Under the pieces are notes generated by a model. The model did not search any database. It saw only the letters and a program-made list of their open reading frames with translations, and was not told the DNA's origin. Positions 21,689 through 31,478 of a stretch of 64,000 bases of DNA are shown here, piece after piece (position 1 is the stretch's first letter; each line of letters begins with the position of its first letter). The DNA comes from Bifidobacterium breve. GTDB lineage: Bacteria; Bacteroidota; Bacteroidia; Flavobacteriales; Flavobacteriaceae. Made by a program: the position numbers and the translations under genes. Where the stretch lies: positions 4,347 to 68,346 of the forward strand of contig CALPIE020000001.1 of assembly GCA_943323545.2 (NCBI GenBank), read 5' to 3'.

Positions 21689-21702
21689 ATTGCAATTCAA
21701 AT

Positions 21703-21759
21703 AAAAAAAAGCCGCAGATTCACTGATTATATTTTAAATCAGCGAATCTGCGGCTTTTT
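21703..21759. terminator. Long bidirectional hairpin between convergent glyQS and arsR-like genes
   Basis: AAAAAGCCGCAGATT..CTGATT / AATCAG..AATCTGCGGCTTTTT. Confidence 0.8.
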
Positions 21760-21772
21760 ATCCCAACTCTAA

Positions 21773-22090
21773 CTAATCTTGAGCCTTAAACTGAATTTCT
21801 GTCAACAAAAAACCTTTTACTTTTTCCCACGTTTTTTCGTTTATCGAATAAGAAATGTTATTTCCGATGTCTTTTCCTTTAATTAATTTCACGCGTTTTA
21901 ATTCAGATAAGTGTTTTGAAACGGTAGATTGTGCCAAAGGCAAAACTTCTAAAAAATCGCCACAAACACATGATTTTGATTGCAACAATAGTTGTATAAT
22001 TTTCAGTCGAGCTGGATTTCCTAATGCTTTTAAAATATCGGCTGTTTCATTGATTTTAAAGGCAAAACCAAAAGTTTTTGTAATTCCCAT
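21773..22090 (-). CDS. ArsR/SmtB family transcriptional regulator
   Basis: KALGNPARLKI, SCVCGD, LAQSTVSKHL. Confidence 0.9.
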   Translation of the reverse strand: MGITKTFGFAFKINETADILKALGNPARLKIIQLLLQSKSCVCGDFLEVLPLAQSTVSKHLSELKRVKLIKGKDIGNNISYSINEKTWEKVKGFLLTEIQFKAQD

Positions 22091-22675
22091 ATCGCTATAA
22101 TATCATACTTTATTTAAATTAAAAAATTGGATTCATTCTTTGATTCCATATGCAATTAAGTAGCAGCTACTTTTTATCAATTACGTTTATCAAAAAATCA
22201 AATCGATACAAATCTACTAAAAGTTTGTAATAGTAAATAAAAGAAGTAAAAATTGCGCTGAATATAAAAGATAAACTAATTAAAATCAATTATATAGCTG
22301 AATAATATTTAGGTGCAATATCGCAATATAGTAATAACTAAAATGTAATGGCTATGTACAGTAAACAAATCAAATGGACTTTTTTATAAATTAGAAAAGT
22401 GAAAAAATAAAGGTAAAATCAAATAGTAATTGTTAATTACTTCTTCAGTTTTTTATCAAAAATTGTCTGAAAAGGTTAATTATAAAGGCATTTTCGAAAA
22501 AATGTGTGTCATTCATCGGCTTAATTCCCCATACATCTAATAGTTGAAAACTTGTAATTCAGAAAGAGGAATCATCAAATTTATTAAAGTATTTTAGACT
22601 CGGAATAACGATTTTTTAATTATTATTTCATTTAGTCCCCAAGACTATCGTATAATAAACTTAATTATCTGATGC

Positions 22676-23683
22676 TTGCCTCAATCAAACAGGGAAGTAT
22701 TGAATAAGATAACTTTTATTATCATTGATGACAATCAAAACAATGTTTTGAAAACAAAAGCAGTTGCTGAAAGTTTCCAAGGCCTTGAATTTGTTGCTTC
22801 TGCTGCCAACTATGATGATGGATTGGATTGTGTTTTAGAATACAAACCTGACATCGTTTTTTTAGGAATAAATCCAGAAAATAAATCGTCAGACATTTCA
22901 TTGCGATTAATTAATGAATTATATCGTTTTTTACCTCAAATTCCTAGAATAATTGTTACTGCTCTCAATGAGAATTTAGCTTACGAAGCCATAAAATACG
23001 GTGTTTTTGATTATTTAGTTCAGCCAATTCAACAGAAAGACATTCGCAAAACAATCGCCCGTTTAAACAGAGATTTAAATAGCGACACGTCTTTAACTTC
23101 CAATATTCTTTTCGAAGAAAAAGTAATTCAGCAAATCATCGATGCTCCGGAGGAAAATTATGCTGAAGAAGAAGAGATAGATATTCCACAAAACAAAACC
23201 GAAATCAGCGAAGATATTCCAGAAAAAATCGAAGATGAGGCAATTACAGTGGAAAATAAGTCAGAAAAAACGAATTTATCAGCAATCGAAGCCCATCATG
23301 AAGTTACATTTACTAACGGAAATTCCGCCACTAAACCACTTATTATTTGCGTAAAATCGTATGGCGATTATCGATATATCCATGCGACGGATATCTGTTA
23401 TCTCCAAGCCGATAACAATTCAACCGATATACATCTGAGTTCTGGCGAAATGATTACCGCTTTTAAAACGCTTAAACACTTTGAAGGCGTAATGAAATAT
23501 CCTTTTGTGCGAATCCACAATAGTTATATCGTCAACATCGATTTTGTATCACGTATTCACACTGGTAATGCGGTTTGTCATATAAAAGACACCACTACAA
23601 AACTCCCGTTTTCCAAATCCTACAAAGAAAACATTGACGCTATTATTGCTACTATTGCTTCCGGAAATTATTTAGAAATTTAG
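22676..23683 (+). CDS. LytTR-family regulator with atypical receiver domain and acidic linker
   Basis: N-terminal receiver (IIIDD; DIVFLGIN, Gly at the phospho-Asp position) and C-terminal LytTR (YLQADNN, FVRIHNSYIVN); start codon uncertain (TTG 22676 or 22700). Confidence 0.88.
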   Translation: MPQSNREVLNKITFIIIDDNQNNVLKTKAVAESFQGLEFVASAANYDDGLDCVLEYKPDIVFLGINPENKSSDISLRLINELYRFLPQIPRIIVTALNENLAYEAIKYGVFDYLVQPIQQKDIRKTIARLNRDLNSDTSLTSNILFEEKVIQQIIDAPEENYAEEEEIDIPQNKTEISEDIPEKIEDEAITVENKSEKTNLSAIEAHHEVTFTNGNSATKPLIICVKSYGDYRYIHATDICYLQADNNSTDIHLSSGEMITAFKTLKHFEGVMKYPFVRIHNSYIVNIDFVSRIHTGNAVCHIKDTTTKLPFSKSYKENIDAIIATIASGNYLEI

Positions 23684-23725
23684 TGCGTTTTTTGTTTTTG
23701 AAATAAATTTTCATAGTTTCACATT

Positions 23726-24397
23726 ATGGAAAACAAATCAGTAAACATTCTAATGGTTGATGATCATACGCCTATTATTGAAGGATACAAATCAATTTTG
23801 TCCTATAATAAGTCGGGGTTTTCCATAATCACAAAAGAAGCAAATGACTGTGAATCAGCATACAAAATAATAACAAATCCGAGTAATGCTATTCTTTTTG
23901 ATTTGGTTTTTATTGATGTTACGTTGCCGCCATTTATCGAAAAAAATATTCACTCCGGAGAAGATTTGGTTCCCTTTATAAAAGAAAATTTACCAAATGC
24001 AAAGATTGTTATTCTTACTTCACACACCGAATCGTTGGTTTTATTTCGCATTCTAGACAACTGTAAACCAGATGGTTTATTGGTGAAAAGTGATTTTTCA
24101 TCCGAAGAGTTTTTAGTTGTTTTTGATACTATTTTGAGCGGCGAAAAGTACTACAGTAAAACCGTTTTAAAACACAGTAAAGACGTTTTAGAAAATCGTA
24201 AATTTTTAGATCATTACAACATTCAAATCATCATTTTGCTTTCTCAAGGCATTAAAACAAAGAACCTTCACGAACATTTGCATCTTTCTGTAAGTGCTAT
24301 CGATAAAAGAAAAGCGGTAATAAAAATATTTTTCGGCATCGAAAAAGGAACCGATGAAGACATACTTCGCGAAGCCAGAAAACAAGGATTCATTTAA
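23726..24397 (+). CDS. Response regulator, receiver + LuxR/NarL-like HTH
   Basis: MVDDH, DLVFIDV, C-terminal LSQG..LHLSVSAIDKRK. Confidence 0.9.
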   Translation: MENKSVNILMVDDHTPIIEGYKSILSYNKSGFSIITKEANDCESAYKIITNPSNAILFDLVFIDVTLPPFIEKNIHSGEDLVPFIKENLPNAKIVILTSHTESLVLFRILDNCKPDGLLVKSDFSSEEFLVVFDTILSGEKYYSKTVLKHSKDVLENRKFLDHYNIQIIILLSQGIKTKNLHEHLHLSVSAIDKRKAVIKIFFGIEKGTDEDILREARKQGFI

Positions 24398-24423
24398 AAC
24401 ATTTTCTTATCAAGTATTTTTTT

Positions 24424-24570
24424 TGGCGTTCCCCGATAGATAAAAATAAGTTGATAAACGTAGTTTTTACAAATCGGGGCCGGGCTTTTCGCTACAATCT
24501 TTTTTGCTCCGCCAGTTCGCTTCGCTCGTGCCGTTCCTCAAAAAGGATTTCCACTGCAATCCCTAACGCA
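24424..24570 (+). repeat. Structured intergenic repeat family A, copy 2
   Basis: TGGCGTTCCCC...GGGCTTTTCGCTACAATCTTTT...AAAAGGATTTCCACTGCAATCCCTAACGCA. Confidence 0.8.
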
Positions 24571-24593
24571 AACCTGTTTTTAAATAAAAAATA

Positions 24594-24638
24594 TACAGAA
24601 AAACTGTAATTTTTATTTTATACACTTCTTTAATTTTA
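24594..24638 (+). promoter_or_regulatory. Palindromic operator TACAG-N5-CTGTA with downstream -7-like box, copy 1
   Basis: 24-bp identity with 25386-25409; TAATTTTA begins 37 bp after the palindrome start. Confidence 0.65.
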
Positions 24639-24717
24639 CTTCAATAACAAAATAAAATATATAATCCTGCCAATTTGTTTTCGACGACACAAACCAGGAT
24701 TGCAATAATTAAAAATT

Positions 24718-25380
24718 ATGAAAAACTTTTCATTTGGCGCTATAGTCATACTTCTTTTATTTGGTACAAATTCCCTTAGCCAAACCACAATAAAAGAACA
24801 ATTAAAGACCTTAGAACAAAGCGTCGCTGCCACAAAACCAAACACGTATGTCTTTAACGTTGAAAGACAAAAAAGTGTGAGTATCTATGATTCTATAGGA
24901 TTAAAAGCCTGTCAATGTTTAGATTCTTTAATCGCATTTGTTGCAACCCAAAAGCAAATGGCTGCTGCCACTTTCGATCTTAATGTAAAACCCTATCTAG
25001 AAAAAAAGCTACTCGAAAGGAATATGGAAACACTTGATTTCTCTGATGAAGAAGACCTTATATATGAAAGTTTTATAAACGTATTGAATTATAACAATGC
25101 TATACCTACTGTACAATTATATGAAGATTTCATTGTAAAAAATTACAAAAATCAGGTGCTAATGTCAAATATCTTAACGGTTCTATCCTATATCAAACAT
25201 ACTTGTTTTTATTTATCGAATGAAGTTAGTGATCCGACTTTTAAATATACTATCCATTGTTTTAGAGAAGATGTATTATCATATAACGTTTTCAATTGGA
25301 AGGTTTTTGCGATACATCCAGGTGCAATGTTAATTTGGTCGATAGCAGCTTGTGCCTGGGATGCTAAATTTGAAAAGTAA
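24718..25380 (+). CDS. Exported hypothetical protein with hydrophobic Cys/Trp-containing C-terminus
   Basis: Signal peptide; C-terminal C...NWKVFAIHPGAMLIWSIAACAWD. Confidence 0.7.
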   Translation: MKNFSFGAIVILLLFGTNSLSQTTIKEQLKTLEQSVAATKPNTYVFNVERQKSVSIYDSIGLKACQCLDSLIAFVATQKQMAAATFDLNVKPYLEKKLLERNMETLDFSDEEDLIYESFINVLNYNNAIPTVQLYEDFIVKNYKNQVLMSNILTVLSYIKHTCFYLSNEVSDPTFKYTIHCFREDVLSYNVFNWKVFAIHPGAMLIWSIAACAWDAKFEK

Positions 25381-25385
25381 AAATG

Positions 25386-25430
25386 TACAGAAAAACTGTA
25401 ATTTTTATTGTAACCGACTTTTTAAATTTA
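25386..25430 (+). promoter_or_regulatory. Palindromic operator TACAG-N5-CTGTA with downstream -7-like box, copy 2
   Basis: TACAGAAAAACTGTAATTTTTATT; TAAATTTA at the same 37-bp offset. Confidence 0.65.
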
Positions 25431-25544
25431 CCAAATCATAATAAAAAGTTTTTAAAATAGAAACATAGCCGAATACACGCCAAAATTTGAATTTCGATTT
25501 CATCTAGCGCTATGTTTCTATTTGTTATCTTAAAATACTTAAAA

Positions 25545-25814
25545 ATGAAAACAAGTAACAACAATAGAATTCAAATTTTAGAATTTTTGCCACTTATTTT
25601 AATAGTCATTTATAAAATGGCAATTCAAACCAATGCAAGTATAAATCATCAAGATAAAATGATTGTGATGTATGTTTTTATTGCCATTTCTACAGTAGTG
25701 TTTGGCTATTTATTAATGAGAGACAAAAACACAAATGCTAAAAGTATTGTAAGTATTGTTATACTAGTTTCCTTAATAATAGTTTCTTGTTTTCTTTTTT
25801 ACTATAAAAAATAA
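25545..25814 (+). CDS. Small 3-TM membrane protein
   Basis: Three hydrophobic segments and a basic C-terminus; ATG 25545 in AT-rich context (alternative start 25512). Confidence 0.65.
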   Translation: MKTSNNNRIQILEFLPLILIVIYKMAIQTNASINHQDKMIVMYVFIAISTVVFGYLLMRDKNTNAKSIVSIVILVSLIIVSCFLFYYKK

Positions 25815-25877
25815 AGTAGTTAAAATTATATATTTATAGCTGTAAAAAATTGTTGAAAGTGATAACATATAAACACA

Positions 25878-27911
25878 ATGATTAAAACTTCGAAATATTT
25901 CTTTTTGATTCTGACACTAATGTTTTTTAGTTGCAACAAAAAAGCCAACTCAAACTTAGATGAAGCCAACAACGATTCGATTGCTAAATATTTGAAATTG
26001 GCGGGGAATGATTCGTTGGCTTTTCCGCTTCGTGATAAATACAATCAGAAGGCATTTTCGTTGATTGATTTGGGAAGGAATGATACGGTGGTGAGATGGT
26101 ATTTATGTCAAGCGGCTATTAATTTTAGTATAACAAAAAATAAATCACAGTATTATAAAATAAGTAAACTACATTTTAATAAATCAAAGGAAGCAAAAGA
26201 TACTCTTAATTTAGCAAGGTATTATAGGTATCGAGGGGGTTATTTTAAAAATAATACCAAACAGTTTGATAGTATGTTTTATTATTATACTAAAGCTGAA
26301 AAATTTTATAAAAGAACAGTTGATTATGAAGGATTATCAAGAGTTTACTTATTTAAAGGACATGCTCAATTTAATATTGATGACTATTTAGGCGCTGAAC
26401 TTTCAACTAATCAAGCGTTTAATATTATAAAAAAAAGAAAAGAAGATAGATTTACATATAGCGTGTTAAATCAATTGGGTAACATTGCCCACAATTTAAG
26501 ACATTATAATCATGCTATTAAGTTTCATGAAGAATCATTAAAATTAGCGAAAAGATTAAACTTGTCTGCAAGATTATATAACATGGATTTTATTAAAACT
26601 AGTTTAAATAATATTGGAAATTCTTATAAGGAGCAAAAAAAATATAGAAAGGCAATATATTATTTTGAGAAAGCTCTTTCAGATAAGAAAGAAATTAATG
26701 AAGATATATTAACTTATGCTTATTTATTTACGAATATTGGTTATTCAAAAATGCAATTAAAAGAATATTCTCAATTACCAAATTTATTTGAAAAAGCTAT
26801 AAAAATTTATGATAGTTTAGATATTAAAAATGAGTGTTCTTTGAGTTATGTGTATTTATCTGATTATTATTTTAGAATAAAAGACACTTCAAAAGCCATT
26901 TCCTATTCTGAAAAAGCATTACAAATTGCTAAAGAGTCAAAAGCACCTTATTACTATTTAATTGCATTAAGTCATGCTGGTTTTGTAAATAAATCAAAAG
27001 CTTCAAAATATATCAAAGAATACCACGAAAAGAATGATAGCATTCAATTTGAACAACGAAAAGTTCGCAATCAATTCTATAAAATCCAACTTGAAACCGA
27101 TGAAATTACCCAAGAAAAAGAGGCCGCAATAAAACAAAAGTGGGTGCTTTCCTCAACAATAGCGGGAATTCTGCTTATCGTAATATTGCTATTTATAATT
27201 CACAGACAACGCGCCAAACAAAAGGAGCTACAATTATTGCAGCTACAGCAAAAAGGCAATGAAGAAATTTACCATCTTATGCTCAACCAACAAGCAAAAG
27301 TAGAGGAAGCGCGCCAAATAGAAAAAAAACGCATCGCTTTAGAACTCCACGACGGAATTATGAACAAATTAGCCAGTACCCGACTCAATTTGTTTGTACT
27401 GTCTAAGAAAAATGATCCAGAAACCATCAATAAATGCTTGACTTATATTGAAGACATTCATCATATCGAAAACGAAATACGTAATGTGTCACACGAGCTA
27501 AATCAGGAACTCTTTACCGAAAAAGACAGTTTTAAAACACTTTTAAAGCAGTTTGTTGCCGAACAAAACAGTCATTTGAAAACCAATTACGAACTTCAAA
27601 TAGATAAAAACATCAATTGGGAGTTGATTTCTAGCGAAATAAAAATGCATTTGTACCGCATTATTCAAGAAGCTATAAACAATAGTAACAAACATGCAAA
27701 AGCTACAAAAGTGATTATTTGTATTACTATGGATGAAAACCAACTTTGTATGTCGATAACAGACAACGGAATTGGTTTCGATTCCCAAAAAACAAAAGAA
27801 GGCATTGGGTTATTAAACATACAACAACGCATTCACTCTTTAAACGGAACGCTTTCTATCGAATCAAAAGTAAAAAAGGGTACAGTTATTTATTTAAAAA
27901 TCCCATTTTAA
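25878..27911 (+). CDS. TPR-repeat sensor histidine kinase (HisKA_3 + HATPase_c) 1
   Basis: Lipobox-like FFSC, TPR repeats (LNQLGNI, LNNIGNSY), one TM, ELHDG H-box, QEAINN..KHA, DNGIGF, GIGL. Confidence 0.92.
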   Translation: MIKTSKYFFLILTLMFFSCNKKANSNLDEANNDSIAKYLKLAGNDSLAFPLRDKYNQKAFSLIDLGRNDTVVRWYLCQAAINFSITKNKSQYYKISKLHFNKSKEAKDTLNLARYYRYRGGYFKNNTKQFDSMFYYYTKAEKFYKRTVDYEGLSRVYLFKGHAQFNIDDYLGAELSTNQAFNIIKKRKEDRFTYSVLNQLGNIAHNLRHYNHAIKFHEESLKLAKRLNLSARLYNMDFIKTSLNNIGNSYKEQKKYRKAIYYFEKALSDKKEINEDILTYAYLFTNIGYSKMQLKEYSQLPNLFEKAIKIYDSLDIKNECSLSYVYLSDYYFRIKDTSKAISYSEKALQIAKESKAPYYYLIALSHAGFVNKSKASKYIKEYHEKNDSIQFEQRKVRNQFYKIQLETDEITQEKEAAIKQKWVLSSTIAGILLIVILLFIIHRQRAKQKELQLLQLQQKGNEEIYHLMLNQQAKVEEARQIEKKRIALELHDGIMNKLASTRLNLFVLSKKNDPETINKCLTYIEDIHHIENEIRNVSHELNQELFTEKDSFKTLLKQFVAEQNSHLKTNYELQIDKNINWELISSEIKMHLYRIIQEAINNSNKHAKATKVIICITMDENQLCMSITDNGIGFDSQKTKEGIGLLNIQQRIHSLNGTLSIESKVKKGTVIYLKIPF

Positions 27912-28133
27912 TTCCTTAATCAAACTTTTATACTTAAAGGATTCATTGATTTTGTTCTATTGAGTCTGTAGGTTTCTACTACTTCTTCATTCACAACTCC
28001 AAGATTATCTACAACAATCATCGACCAACTACACTTTTATTAAATAATTTATTTTTAAAATGTTGATTTTCAATATTTTAAGTTTATGAATTTTCTTTTT
28101 ATACTCCGAAAAACCACTTGGTTTTATAAATTG

Positions 28134-28184
28134 TTCATTCACCCTAATTTGCTATTCATTCACTCACAAACGGCGTTCATCTAC
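28134..28184 (+). promoter_or_regulatory. Three 9-bp direct repeats at 21-bp period (putative LytTR binding sites)
   Basis: TTCATTCAC 28134, TTCATTCAC 28155, TTCATCTAC 28176; a further TTCATTCAC at 27986. Confidence 0.7.
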
Positions 28185-28227
28185 CATATACACTATAAAG
28201 TATATCAATAGAACTCCAATGCTATAG

Positions 28228-28235
28228 TAGATTTG
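28228..28235 (+). promoter_or_regulatory. -7 box of the peptide-gene promoter
   Basis: TAGATTTG matches TAnnTTTG; no TTTG at the expected -33 position. Confidence 0.6.
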
Positions 28236-28321
28236 TCGAGTAAAAGCCTCAAAGAGTTGATGGCAAATCAAATGGCTTTTCTAAAATTAAAGTATAACAA
28301 AAAATATAAAACTTAGAAATT

Positions 28322-28564
28322 ATGAAAAAATCGTTATTAATAATCGGATTGTTCTCTTTAATGATGGTGTTGACATCATTTACGTCTCCTAATGAGACTG
28401 GAGGGAATAAAACAATAGGTGAATTTACAACAGGTGGTAATAAAACAGTAGGTGAATTTACAACTGGAGGTAATAAAACAATAGGTGAATTTACAACTGG
28501 AGGTAATAAAACAATAGGTGAGTTTACATACGAAACAGGTGGAAATAAAACTATAGGAGAATAA
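28322..28564 (+). CDS. Small secreted multi-core peptide precursor (5x TGGNKT[I/V]GE)
   Basis: Sec-type signal peptide, synonymous variation among the 33-bp repeats, own promoter and terminator. Confidence 0.85.
   Translation: MKKSLLIIGLFSLMMVLTSFTSPNETGGNKTIGEFTTGGNKTVGEFTTGGNKTIGEFTTGGNKTIGEFTYETGGNKTIGE
28397..28561 (+). repeat. Coding 33-bp tandem repeat, 5 units
   Basis: AC(T/A)GG(A/T)GGnAATAAAAC(A/T)(A/G)TAGGnGA units; one 6-bp insertion before the last unit. Confidence 0.9.
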
Positions 28565-28588
28565 TAAATTTAATTTTTTATATAATTG

Positions 28589-28621
28589 AAAAGCTGTTGT
28601 ATTTACAACAGCTTTTTTTTT
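28589..28621 (+). terminator. Terminator after the peptide gene
   Basis: AAAAGCTGTTGTA-tt-TACAACAGCTTTT plus T run. Confidence 0.88.
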
Positions 28622-28658
28622 GTCAAAAAAACACTATTTTTGAAAAAAAATAAAATTT

Positions 28659-30704
28659 TTGAGAAAATATAATTTCATATTAATATTTTTTTTCTTATTC
28701 GGATGTAAAGAAAATAAGAAACAAATAAAAATATTAAATGTTACACATGATAGCATTTCATATTTTCTTGATAGGGCAAATAGAAATTTAGAAAAAGATA
28801 TCAATAAAAGTTATGTTTTTTATAAAAAAGCTTTAAAATATTCTGATGAAATTACAAATGATTCCCTTAGTAGAGATTGTCTTTTTAAAATAAATTATGG
28901 CTTTTATAAACTAAAAAAGTGGGAAGATTTTAAAGAATCCTCTAAAATCTTACTAGAATATTCAATAGAAAGTAAAGATACTTTCCATATTGCACAAGTA
29001 TACAGATATAAAGGTAATTATTATAAAAACACATCTTTAAATGATAGTGCTTTTTATTATTATATAAAAGCTGAAAAATTATTTGATAAAATCAATGATA
29101 AAATCAATTTAGCAAATATTTTAACTAATAAAAGTGTTGTTCAATACAATACTGGAAATTATAATAGTGCAGATAAAACATTAACCCAATCATATTTTTT
29201 ATTAAAAAATTCAGAAGATAAAAATAAATTTTTTGAATGTTTAATCATGATGGGTGTAATTTCAAATGAAACAAAAAATTATGAACAGGCAATTGAATAT
29301 TACAATAAAGCATTAACAATTGTTAGGGAAAATAAAATAAAAACATCAATATTTGAAGAAGCTACGACATTAAATAATTTAGGTTATAATTATCAAAAAA
29401 TTGAGAATTATAATGAAGCAATAAAAAATTATAATTTAGCTTTAAAAGATAAAGAATTGGAAAATTCTTTGCCAGATTTATATAGCCTTCTAATTGATAA
29501 TCTTGCATATTCTAAATTTAAAATTAGAGACTTTAACAACATTCCAGATTTATTTTATAAAGGCTTAAGAATTAGAGAAAAAATAAATTCACCAACATTA
29601 ATTATTTTAAGTAAAATACATTTATCGGAGTATTATTTTGATAAAAAAGATTTAATATTATCTAAAAAGTTTGCAAATGAAGCTTTAAGACTATCTAAAG
29701 AAACTAAAAACACAAGAGATGTTTTAGCATCTTTAAAACAGGCTTCTAATGTTGATGCTGTTAATTCTTCAAAATTATCTAAGGATTATATTCGAATTAG
29801 TGACAGTATTAATGAAGTTGAAAGAAAGTCACAAGAAAAATTTGCCCGTCTTGAACTCGAAACGGAAGAAATTAAAGAGGAAAATACTCAACTATCTCAA
29901 AAAAATAGGACAATTCTAAATTACTTTATTAGCGCAATAATAATTGGAGGATTTTTATTTTTTGCGAGAACACAGCGATCACGATCAAGAGAATTAACAC
30001 TCAAACAATCCCAACAACAAGCCAATGAAGAAATATACCGACTTATCATTTCCCACCAAAATCAGCTTGAAGAAGGTAGAGATTTAGAAAAAAAACGACT
30101 CTCAAAAGAATTACACGACGGGGTTCTTGGCCGTTTGTTTGGACTTCGTCTCAACCTAGACGGTTTAAACAATAGCGATGATGAAATTTCAAAGCAACAA
30201 CGATTGGATTATCTTAACGAGCTGCAACTTATAGAGCAAGATCTTCGCGATATTTCGCATGAGTTAAACAGAGAGAACTTGGTGTTAATAAATAACTTCG
30301 TTGCCATCATCAATAACTTATTAGAACAACAAGCTAAAATAAATCCTGCCAAAATAAAAGCGATTATAGCTGACGATATCGATTGGGAAATATTGCCCAA
30401 CACTGCTAAAATTAATTTGTACCGAATTCTACAAGAAGCGCTGCAAAATATTAATAAACACGCTGAAGCTAAGAATATTTTAATCCATTTTAGAAAAGAT
30501 AAAAAAGGGAATTTGCTCTTTAATATTGAAGACGATGGGAAAGGTTATGATTTGAATAGCAAAAAAAGCAAAGGAATCGGAATGAAAAATATAGTGTCGA
30601 GAACACAACAATGTAATGGAATTATAGATATTAAATCGGAAATAGGAAAAGGTTCAAAAATTATTATTACTTTTCCACTCGAAAATAAAACCATAAAAGT
30701 TTAA
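28659..30704 (+). CDS. TPR-repeat sensor histidine kinase (HisKA_3 + HATPase_c) 2
   Basis: TTG start, lipobox-like LFGC, TPR repeats, TM, ELHDG H-box, QEALQNINKHA, DDGKG, GIGM. Confidence 0.92.
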   Translation: MRKYNFILIFFFLFGCKENKKQIKILNVTHDSISYFLDRANRNLEKDINKSYVFYKKALKYSDEITNDSLSRDCLFKINYGFYKLKKWEDFKESSKILLEYSIESKDTFHIAQVYRYKGNYYKNTSLNDSAFYYYIKAEKLFDKINDKINLANILTNKSVVQYNTGNYNSADKTLTQSYFLLKNSEDKNKFFECLIMMGVISNETKNYEQAIEYYNKALTIVRENKIKTSIFEEATTLNNLGYNYQKIENYNEAIKNYNLALKDKELENSLPDLYSLLIDNLAYSKFKIRDFNNIPDLFYKGLRIREKINSPTLIILSKIHLSEYYFDKKDLILSKKFANEALRLSKETKNTRDVLASLKQASNVDAVNSSKLSKDYIRISDSINEVERKSQEKFARLELETEEIKEENTQLSQKNRTILNYFISAIIIGGFLFFARTQRSRSRELTLKQSQQQANEEIYRLIISHQNQLEEGRDLEKKRLSKELHDGVLGRLFGLRLNLDGLNNSDDEISKQQRLDYLNELQLIEQDLRDISHELNRENLVLINNFVAIINNLLEQQAKINPAKIKAIIADDIDWEILPNTAKINLYRILQEALQNINKHAEAKNILIHFRKDKKGNLLFNIEDDGKGYDLNSKKSKGIGMKNIVSRTQQCNGIIDIKSEIGKGSKIIITFPLENKTIKV

Positions 30705-30709
30705 CAACA

Positions 30710-31387
30710 ATGCCCCACCAAAATATTAAAGTCTTAATCGTAGATGATCATCCTTTTATCATTCAAGGATATGAAAATGTGATTAATAGATTTCCTAATA
30801 AAAAAATAGAATTCACTATTTCAAAAGCAGTCGATTGCAAATCGGGTTACGAAATCATAATGAATGACAACGGAGAAACTTTCGATATTGCTTTTTTAGA
30901 CGTCAGTATGCCTGTTTATTTAGAAAAAGACATTCATACCGGAGAAGATTTAGCCAAATTACTTAACAAAGAAATGCCCGATTGTAAGATTGTTCTGCTA
31001 ACAATGCACTCGGAAAGTTTGAAAGTCCAAAAAATAATAGATGAAATTAATCCACTTGGCTTAGTCATCAAAAACGATTTGACTTTTGATAATATGTTGT
31101 TGGCCATCGAAACGGTTATAAAAGGTGAAAAATATTACAGTGATGCAGTAATTAAATTTTTAAACCAACAACAAAAAGAAAAAATCTACGTCGATGTCAT
31201 CGACAGACAAATTCTTCACTTTTTAAATAAAGGAATTCCAGCAGGAGATGTGGCTTTGTACATTCCAATTTCATCCAGTTCGGTAAAAACCAGAATTGAA
31301 AATATGAAAGAACTTATAGGAAAAACCGAATATACCGATAAAGAATTAGTTGCTGAAGCTAAAGAAAACGGAATGATGTTAAAATAG
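30710..31387 (+). CDS. Response regulator, receiver + LuxR/NarL-like HTH (paralog of 23726)
   Basis: IVDDHP, DIAFLDVSMP; shares IH(S/T)GEDL with the paralog. Confidence 0.9.
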   Translation: MPHQNIKVLIVDDHPFIIQGYENVINRFPNKKIEFTISKAVDCKSGYEIIMNDNGETFDIAFLDVSMPVYLEKDIHTGEDLAKLLNKEMPDCKIVLLTMHSESLKVQKIIDEINPLGLVIKNDLTFDNMLLAIETVIKGEKYYSDAVIKFLNQQQKEKIYVDVIDRQILHFLNKGIPAGDVALYIPISSSSVKTRIENMKELIGKTEYTDKELVAEAKENGMMLK

Positions 31388-31452: not shown

Positions 31453-31478
31453 AATCCTCTTAATGGAGAGGATTTTTT
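31453..31478. terminator. Hairpin terminator between convergent genes
   Basis: AATCCTCT...AGAGGATT followed by T run. Confidence 0.6.

Follow-up and report, generated by a model that had tools for sequence, protein, structure and literature searches.

Introduction

Peptide pheromone circuits are textbook Gram-positive biology. In ComQXPA the peptide gene lies directly before those of a HisKA_3-type kinase and a NarL-type regulator, and the peptide and the N-terminal part of the sensor covary as pherotypes while the kinase is conserved; AgrD carries a thiolactone or lactone core built on a cysteine (or serine). The present analysis concerns a 64,000-nucleotide (nt) stretch of DNA from a member of the Flavobacteriaceae (hereafter the window; assembly GCA_943323545.2, contig CALPIE020000001.1, positions 4,347 to 68,346), in which a tiny gene for a predicted secreted peptide is followed by a histidine kinase gene (HK2) with a tetratricopeptide repeat (TPR) domain. 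The system acts like ComQXP or agr with an RRNPP-like TPR receptor, yet belongs to none of these. About half of the Flavobacterium species searched carry such a peptide gene, usually with repeats. By this genetic signature they likely possess a kin-specific, quorum-sensing-like peptide signalling system, with quorum sensing proper (a diffusible signal, a density response and autoinduction) being a candidate only.

Papers are cited here for the passages concerned. RRNPP receptors are intracellular proteins of 250-500 amino acids (aa), and RRNPP_detector was applied to Firmicutes only (PMC10075063). Intragenic duplication of the core peptide has been described for phr and nprX (PMC5199041). In the Bacteroidota, the signal of the kinase FimS is stated to be unknown and is proposed to be a polypeptide (PMC11053733). 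No description of a comparable peptide-TPR kinase system was found for this Gram-negative group in a literature search which covered few subscription papers and so leaves its absence unproven; two Flavobacterium papers (PMC5395568, PMC10057207), in the sections cited, only count or mention LytTR genes.

Organisation and distribution of the locus

All eight open reading frames (ORFs) proposed by an earlier reading of the letters alone (the sequence-only reading) were found at 22676-31387 of the window, all on the plus strand and in the order LytTR regulator, response regulator RR1, two accessory genes, TPR kinase HK1, peptide gene, TPR kinase HK2 and response regulator RR2. The features of the conserved core are as follows (TM, transmembrane helix).

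22700-23683, plus strand: lytTR, receiver and LytTR domains (Pfam, called over 22676-23683), a pseudo-receiver without the phospho-Asp; core gene, product likely to bind the peptide-promoter repeats
28136-28186, plus strand: LytTR-type site, three 9-bp direct repeats with a 21-bp period, the only such site in the genome assembly
28228-28235, plus strand: -7-like box TAGATTTG, 41 nt after the repeats, matching what we take to be the -7 promoter box of Bacteroidota
28322-28564, plus strand: peptide precursor gene, 80 aa; a Sec signal is predicted over about 20-22 aa, and of the five TGGNKT[IV]GE cores the last forms the C-terminus
28588-28617, plus strand: intrinsic terminator-like hairpin between the peptide gene and HK2
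28659-30704, plus strand: HK2, with lipobox-type Cys16, about 7-8 TPRs, one predicted TM near residues 418-437 and HisKA_3/HATPase_c domains; likely the cognate receptor
30710-31387, plus strand: RR2, receiver (Pfam), NarL-like, D/T/K residues intact; core gene, likely the phospho-acceptor of HK2
31453-31474, plus strand: terminator-like hairpin ending the locus

The genus of the window was searched with a 32-column profile of the signal sequence, built from 12 precursor N-termini, which matched 202 of 401 genomes, nearly always once per genome. The locus set (n=141) consisted of the window and 140 loci fetched from the 150 matches listed (55 further matches were unlisted), excluding the window's own genome and nine matches close to contig ends. 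A TPR kinase followed the peptide gene in 137 of the 141 loci, the four misses being contigs which ended within 160-439 nt; a response regulator came next in 133, and lytTR lay upstream of the peptide gene in 133, in most genomes with no gene in between. HK1 was present in 27 loci and RR1 in 24; of the eight genes listed by the sequence-only reading, RR1, the accessory genes and HK1 thus lie outside the conserved core. The conserved core is lytTR-peptide-HK2-RR2, with RR1-cassette-HK1 an insertion in about one fifth of loci. Because these loci had been chosen by the peptide, 20 further loci were chosen by the LytTR domain alone; a small secreted ORF followed by a kinase was found in 19, and the remaining one was a tandem lytTR copy. 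The predicted linkage of signal-peptide ORFs to TPR-HisKA_3 kinases is thus conserved across genomes.

Homologues of HK2 were found in 193 of 301 genomes of the family. The module in other genera was located via this kinase and not via the signal-peptide profile, which failed to reach them (18 of 400 family genomes matched, only the one from the same genus convincingly). In the 28 best loci of other genera, a small ORF with a signal sequence was recognised before the kinase in 22 cases by automatic filtering and in 27 by eye, against 3 of 317 long ORFs used as a control. The precursors were lipoprotein-like in 21 of the 28 loci, and multi-copy precursors were present in L214, L224, L247 and L248. 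Other Flavobacteriaceae genera thus possess this module too, mostly with lipoprotein-type peptides. An orthologue of the LytTR protein was found in 19 of 28 Flavobacteriaceae genomes (E 1e-22) and, with this query and threshold, in none of 372 genomes of other families.

The peptide precursor

The 80-aa ORF has a hydrophobic N-terminus, and its five core copies are spaced 33, 33, 33 and 39 nt. The units differ at many third codon positions and by one amino acid, and the last reaches the stop codon. The ORF is no product of chance: of 6743 short ORFs of the genome, four passed a signal-plus-repeat filter, and a long tandem core was present in the peptide ORF only. Across the locus set precursors were 52-129 aa long, and 113 of the 140 readable ones were multi-copy, with the unit end at most 2 residues from the C-terminus in 93 of these 113. 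Between repeat copies the proportion of non-synonymous differences (pN) was 0.045 and that of synonymous differences (pS) 0.28 (87 genes, with the codons of the anchoring 5-mer excluded); when only flanks were counted, which is stricter, the values were 0.17 and 0.34 (112 genes). As pN was below pS between copies, the repeats are selected as protein and are under purifying selection.

Cores were extracted automatically, a few being mis-framed (e.g. L173), and 106 loci yielded 74 distinct cores (below 0.75 similarity). They are polar, rich in Gly and 8-15 residues long, and of 141 mature regions 2 contain Cys. The cores fall into two classes, A (that of the window), in which units open with xGG, and B, in which units end in a K/R-x-D motif. 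Since GG opens each class A unit, cleavage after GG is possible. A stable hairpin followed the peptide stop codon in 127 of 136 loci.

No family in Pfam matched the peptide ORF or either accessory ORF above its cut-off, and the nearest ESM Atlas clusters consist of Bacteroidota proteins of 78-86 aa that are unnamed and share no Pfam family. In RNA-library contigs from a strain close to L156, the peptide ORF was covered in four of four runs, which had been picked using that stretch; two of these contigs start at one base, 41 nt before the ATG, although such contigs show neither level nor transcription. In several large genomes two unlike cores with the same K/R-x-D ending were observed in one precursor (L142-L147, L155-L157, L160, L164-L169, L175, L186-L191, L195 and L201), as expected of duplicated and then diverged signals.

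Covariation of the core with the TPR domain of HK2

Across the genus, conservation extends over the promoter, the signal peptide and the kinase domain, whereas the core and the TPR domain of HK2 form a hypervariable block that is exchanged as a unit. In pairs of loci with kinase identity of at least 0.90, TPR identity was 33-48% where core similarity was 0.45 or less and 71-95% where it was 0.79 or more; L070 and L083, for instance, have kinases 97% identical, TPRs 39% identical and different cores. In five pairs, DNA identity was 77-94% over the promoter and signal peptide, mostly 27-70% from the core through the TPR domain and mostly above 80% in the kinase, dropping directly after the signal peptide and recovering near the TM. 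In 38 disjoint close pairs, core similarity was correlated with TPR identity at rho 0.79, compared with 0.08 for the kinase, -0.06 for the signal peptide, 0.25 for lytTR and 0.06 for RR2. Over 90 loci the partial rho with the HK2 TPR domain (controlled for kinase, glyS and RR2) was 0.24, against -0.01 for the kinase, and in the 80 loci whose nearest neighbours by TPR and by kinase differed, the peptide was closer to that of the TPR neighbour in 65. All-pair partial correlations, in which kin are not independent, were 0.25 (class A) and 0.60 (class B), and 0 of 500 permutations reached either.

To separate binding from co-transfer, the TPR ligand-contact positions 2, 5, 6, 9, 12 and 13 (PMC1261162) were read on seven TPR registers assigned by hand. 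In distant pairs (kinase identity below 70%), groove identity for like versus unlike cores was 0.67 vs 0.36 in class A and 0.74 vs 0.52 in class B, compared with 0.38 vs 0.28 and 0.40 vs 0.34 on the convex face and 0.60 vs 0.59 in the kinase. Controlled for the rest of the TPR domain and the kinase, the groove signal in class B was 0.30 (0 of 500 permutations), while the convex face gave -0.02 (A) and -0.17 (B). The excess identity was concentrated at groove positions and in TPRs 2-5, and the groove closest to that of the window is found in L167, whose genome is distant (kinase 66%) and whose core is similar. The covariation of peptide and TPR domain which the sequence-only reading had predicted was therefore observed for HK2, core similarity tracking the TPR groove and not the convex face or the kinase.

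Several results weigh against a direct pairing. Disjoint close pairs within class A were uncorrelated (rho 0.13, n=18), and those within class B (n=21) gave 0.66 for the TPR domain but also 0.58 for the kinase; the rho of 0.79 is hence partly a between-class effect. Under the control above, the groove signal of class A, the class of the window, was weak (0.09; 22 of 500 permutations). The like-core sets were small, at 16 (A) and 10 (B) non-independent pairs. In L072, the closest relative, the core differs although TPR identity is 59%. The TPR domain of HK1 also had a weak link to the core (partial 0.19, p 0.03, vs 0.25, p 0.009 for HK2; n=23). Finally, peptide and TPR domain are adjacent, and co-transfer alone therefore yields part of the correlation.

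Taken to its limit, this last point would mean that peptide and TPR domain do not interact but covary as one recombining stretch, the kinase sensing something else. They lie 100-300 nt apart with common breakpoints, and the small class A partial correlation fits such an account. It sits poorly with an excess identity which almost vanishes on the convex face and in the kinase, and with a pairing which holds across genera despite the change from lipoprotein to Sec-type precursor, and we consider it very unlikely. The peptide is very probably the cognate ligand of HK2; the locus is real and conserved, and the two are very likely a ligand-receptor pair.

HK2 is a protein of 681 aa, and an N-terminal lipobox-type Cys was present in 133 of 133 sequences. 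Its TPR sequence matched RapF (4i9c, E 6e-4) and LGN and contains invariant Asn columns. The ectodomain was modelled as an all-helical solenoid (predicted local distance difference test (pLDDT) 92.7; predicted template modelling score (pTM) 0.86), the structural likeness resting on the sequence match and the secondary structure of the model. A complex predicted for the HK2 TPR domain (alignment A2) and residues 48-80 of the peptide scored 0.02, with a mark of 0.32, and was counted neither for nor against the pairing. All catalytic residues examined are kept in HK1, HK2, RR1 and RR2; the best NCBIfam matches of the RR1 and RR2 receivers were NarL-type, all far under cut-off.

Short HK2 ORFs were observed in 4 of 137 loci (L073, L084, L086 and L094; 377-493 aa stop to stop), which may be signal-blind variants or result from errors of assembly. 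Downstream of HK2, another kinase-like stretch or a regulator resembling RR1 was seen in L086, L091, L093, L096-L098, L101, L103-L106, L108, L114, L115, L121, L138 and L194.

The LytTR protein and the peptide promoter

In nearly all 141 loci the score of the triple 9-bp repeats lay well clear of that of shuffled sequence (5th percentile of the loci 40 bits; maximum after shuffling -24), and a -7-like box, of a loose pattern based on what is presumably the Bacteroidota consensus, lay 40 or 41 nt after the repeat motif in 135 of 141. A sigma-70 scan was at chance level (59 vs 55.5). LytTR domains recognise 9-bp repeats with 12 bp between them (PMC2766830), and the LytTR domain is highly conserved among relatives; we are fairly confident that the LytTR protein would bind the triple repeats. 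A wider LytTR regulon was considered and rejected, the full motif occurring once in the window's genome. With a degenerate pattern, one site, at the peptide gene, was found in three of five other genomes and none in two.

In the window the phospho-Asp of the LytTR receiver is replaced by Gly and its conserved Lys by Gln. The acceptor column contained Glu in 124, Gly in 2 and a gap in 1 of 127 sequences and never Asp in the genus set; an acceptor Asp was found in one locus of another genus (L246). As the phospho-Asp is missing, the LytTR protein is not an AgrA-type kinase output, and the agr-like wiring of the sequence-only reading has to be given up, since the protein cannot serve as phospho-acceptor. 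ComE D58E is an active dimeric mimic (PMC4005675), and by analogy the natural Glu form of LytTR may bind constitutively. The output of the kinase might reach LytTR through a heterodimer with RR2, through release from RR2 or through independent activation.

The lytTR ORF can be extended upstream to a TTG at 22676, but the TTG at 22700 is the more likely start because relatives begin there. An out-of-frame ATG opens a short ORF (22672-22704) overlapping the lytTR start, and a similar ATG before the TTG or ATG start was observed in many relatives; translational control is possible.

HK1, RR1 and the accessory cassette

The inserted module and its surroundings in the window consist of the following features.

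23726-24397, plus strand: RR1, receiver (Pfam), NarL-like, D/T/K residues intact; accessory module, likely partner of HK1
24474-24572, minus strand: Flavo-1 RNA element (Rfam RF01705, 45.1 bits against a gathering score of 42), between RR1 and a1
24594-24608, with a second copy at 25386-25400, no strand: palindrome TACAG-N5-CTGTA, putative RR1 site
24718-25380, plus strand: accessory gene a1, 220 aa, predicted secreted, no family, part of a variable cassette
25548-25814, plus strand: accessory gene a2, an 88-aa hydrophobic membrane protein which always accompanies a1 (4 loci)
25878-27911, plus strand: HK1, with lipobox-type Cys, TPR ectodomain, one predicted TM, HisKA_3 kinase and HATPase_c; accessory, groove residues variable

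HK1 and HK2 are 33% identical, and a query with HK1 retrieved 13 loci (Flavobacterium, Flavobacteriales or Bacteroidota). In the window, L072 and L079, TPR1 (the TPR domain of HK1) is 71-74% identical despite three different cores, while TPR2 (that of HK2) is 41-59% identical. The proposal that a secreted peptide is read by an extracytoplasmic TPR kinase is thus strongly supported by comparison for HK2, with the linkage, the co-swapped block, the groove covariation and the promoter repeats in its favour, but not for both kinases, as the HK1 TPR domain varies largely independently of the core and only HK2 is likely to be cognate. The Asn-rich groove of HK1 is kept but varies; in 2 of 25 loci it is like the groove of a foreign HK2 type, with 18 (L071) and 22 (L084) of 36 positions matching, and the HK1 groove of the window agrees with foreign HK2 types at no more than 14 of 36. 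The RR1-cassette-HK1 module probably serves as an additional, accessory sensor of other peptides.

Two candidates for an HK1 ligand were rejected. Cassette family c2, directly before HK1, tracks the kinase domains (rho 0.71 and 0.67) and not TPR1 (partial 0.00, n=14), and no convincing separate lipoprotein peptide was found among six small lipoprotein-like ORFs of the assembly, which is 87% complete. Tandem HK1 copies were observed in L079 (two), L109 (two) and L189 (at least three full-length), with one RR1 or none seen.

The cassettes encode varied predicted secreted proteins with a common leader, some followed by small membrane proteins, and are a plausible output of RR1. A genome scan found three exact copies of TACAG-N5-CTGTA, which was not enriched over other spacings. 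An operon elsewhere in the genome (G000:C8:628-4120, minus strand) encodes a 137-aa secreted protein with a cassette-type signal peptide, a 378-aa lipoprotein with what we take to be a DTG aspartyl-protease-like motif, and two more ORFs; it is preceded by an a1/a2-type palindrome, and similar pairs were found within the RR1-HK1 cassettes of L006 and L088. This operon is a candidate RR1 target or processing protease.

Pairing of secreted with small membrane proteins recalls toxin-immunity pairs, and diversifying selection suits antagonism; the peptide might on this basis be an antimicrobial or competition peptide, with HK2 a self-sensor turning on immunity or more weapons in the manner of Blp or Pln. 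The cores are however short, Gly-rich, polar and nearly devoid of Cys, genes for a modification enzyme, an exporter or immunity are missing from the core locus, and PADLOC matched nothing but a generic TPR, so that we hold such a role to be highly improbable.

One and the same ORF of 232-233 aa is inserted between HK1 and the peptide gene in two loci (L005:3371-4069 and L008:8316-9017), and a 523-aa TPR protein weakly similar to both kinases, without a kinase match, was observed at G000:C68:3010-4581. The locus is flanked by genes which we take to be glyS and a small ArsR-like gene on one side and a convergent thiL on the other. The presumed ArsR-like regulator (21773-22090, minus strand) lies between glyS and lytTR, divergent from lytTR, and is also present in L003. 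Matches to miRNA families at 21699-21763 were far under the gathering score (Rfam).

Proposed mechanism

We favour, as moderately probable, a scheme in which an exported multi-copy peptide is cut to units and bound by the TPR groove of HK2, which signals via RR2 in a kin-specific and probably cell-to-cell manner. The precursor would be exported by Sec to the periplasm, and its five 9-residue copies cut into single units by a protease, presumed to be unlinked because none is encoded in the locus; the mature unit would end as the C-terminal copy does. A single unit would bind the groove of HK2, with phosphotransfer to RR2, and the non-phosphorylatable LytTR protein would bind the triple repeat and activate the peptide operon. 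The terminator after the peptide gene would raise peptide mRNA above kinase mRNA, and the peptide unit would pass the outer membrane. It also counts against this scheme that the locus encodes neither a protease nor an outer-membrane route, and that neither a genus-wide motif for an RR2 site before lytTR nor an RR2 target gene was found.

The outer membrane is also where a second account begins, in which the peptide is a ligand of HK2 within the producing cell, a periplasmic partner or inhibitor whose loss or cleavage (through envelope leak, protease activity or secretion stress) would switch the kinase in the manner of CpxP or MgrB, with no density signal. The covariation results show pairing and not diffusion, a Sec-exported peptide in a diderm cell stays periplasmic without an exit route, and the lipoprotein-like precursors of other genera may be tethered. 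A private sensor would however gain little from 74 block-swapped cores in 106 loci, from several copies per precursor or from a terminator favouring peptide mRNA over kinase mRNA, and HK1 grooves like those of foreign HK2 types fit signals from other cells. We regard signalling confined to the producing cell as unlikely, though it deserves serious consideration; provided that the peptide is the ligand, action between cells is fairly likely. A still wider scheme is doubtful at present, namely a family-wide peptide language with at least 74 core dialects in one genus, a periplasmic TPR kinase, a constitutive LytTR protein gated by RR2, and HK1 as an eavesdropper switching on a secreted cassette; if true, it would name the class of ligand read by FimS and other Bacteroidota TPR kinases.

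The locus is a single-copy, genus-wide candidate for a peptide circuit in a diderm phylum. It unites an RRNPP-like TPR groove with a membrane kinase and uses a non-phosphorylatable LytTR protein, and its peptides are a candidate ligand class for Bacteroidota TPR sensor kinases. As receptor, ligand sequence, operator and specificity groups are all readable from the DNA, the system could be tested with a few synthetic 9-14-mers.

Comparison with known systems

The locus has in common with ComQXPA of Bacillus subtilis a HisKA_3 kinase, a NarL-type regulator and a covarying peptide and sensor region, but it contains no ComQ prenyltransferase, the window peptide has no Trp, the precursor is multi-copy and of the Sec type, a one-TM TPR ectodomain stands in place of a polytopic sensor, and the host is a diderm. 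The window peptide likewise has no Cys, hence no thiolactone Cys as in AgrD, and no AgrB processing protease is encoded among the eight ORFs of the locus, to which the search for AgrB was confined; the conserved core holds no other gene. ComCDE, Blp and Pln use a double-glycine leader and a C39 ATP-binding cassette exporter, in contrast to the Sec-type signal here, with no exporter in the locus. Shared with agr, ComCDE, Blp, Sil and Pln are a LytTR regulator, repeats of 21-bp period before the peptide promoter (PMC2766830) and a hypervariable peptide-sensor block; the kinase here is instead of the HisKA_3 type with TPRs. The LytTR regulator of agr, ComCDE and Blp is phosphorylatable, whereas the one described here has no phospho-Asp and in most loci naturally carries Glu, like the active mimic ComE D58E (PMC4005675).

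With the RRNPP systems (Rap-Phr, NprR-NprX, PlcR-PapR and AimR-AimP) the locus shares a TPR-array peptide receptor with an adjacent Sec-type propeptide, secretion being predicted. Core repeats are usual here and not occasional, and the receptor is larger, is predicted to lie outside the inner membrane and carries a TM and a fused HisKA_3 kinase. FimS-FimR of Porphyromonas gingivalis likewise includes a Bacteroidota kinase with a periplasmic TPR array. The NCBIfam FimS model NF053520 gave 36.5 and 41.1 bits with the two kinases (E 1.8e-9 and 7.1e-11), below its cut-off of 600 bits; FimS is drawn with two TM helices and, in the sections cited, without a peptide partner (PMC11053733), whereas the kinases here have a lipobox-type Cys and one predicted TM. 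The locus lacks a defining feature of each of these systems. Its genetics resemble ComQXP or agr, its ligand recognition and core duplication resemble Rap-Phr, and the build of its receptor resembles FimS.

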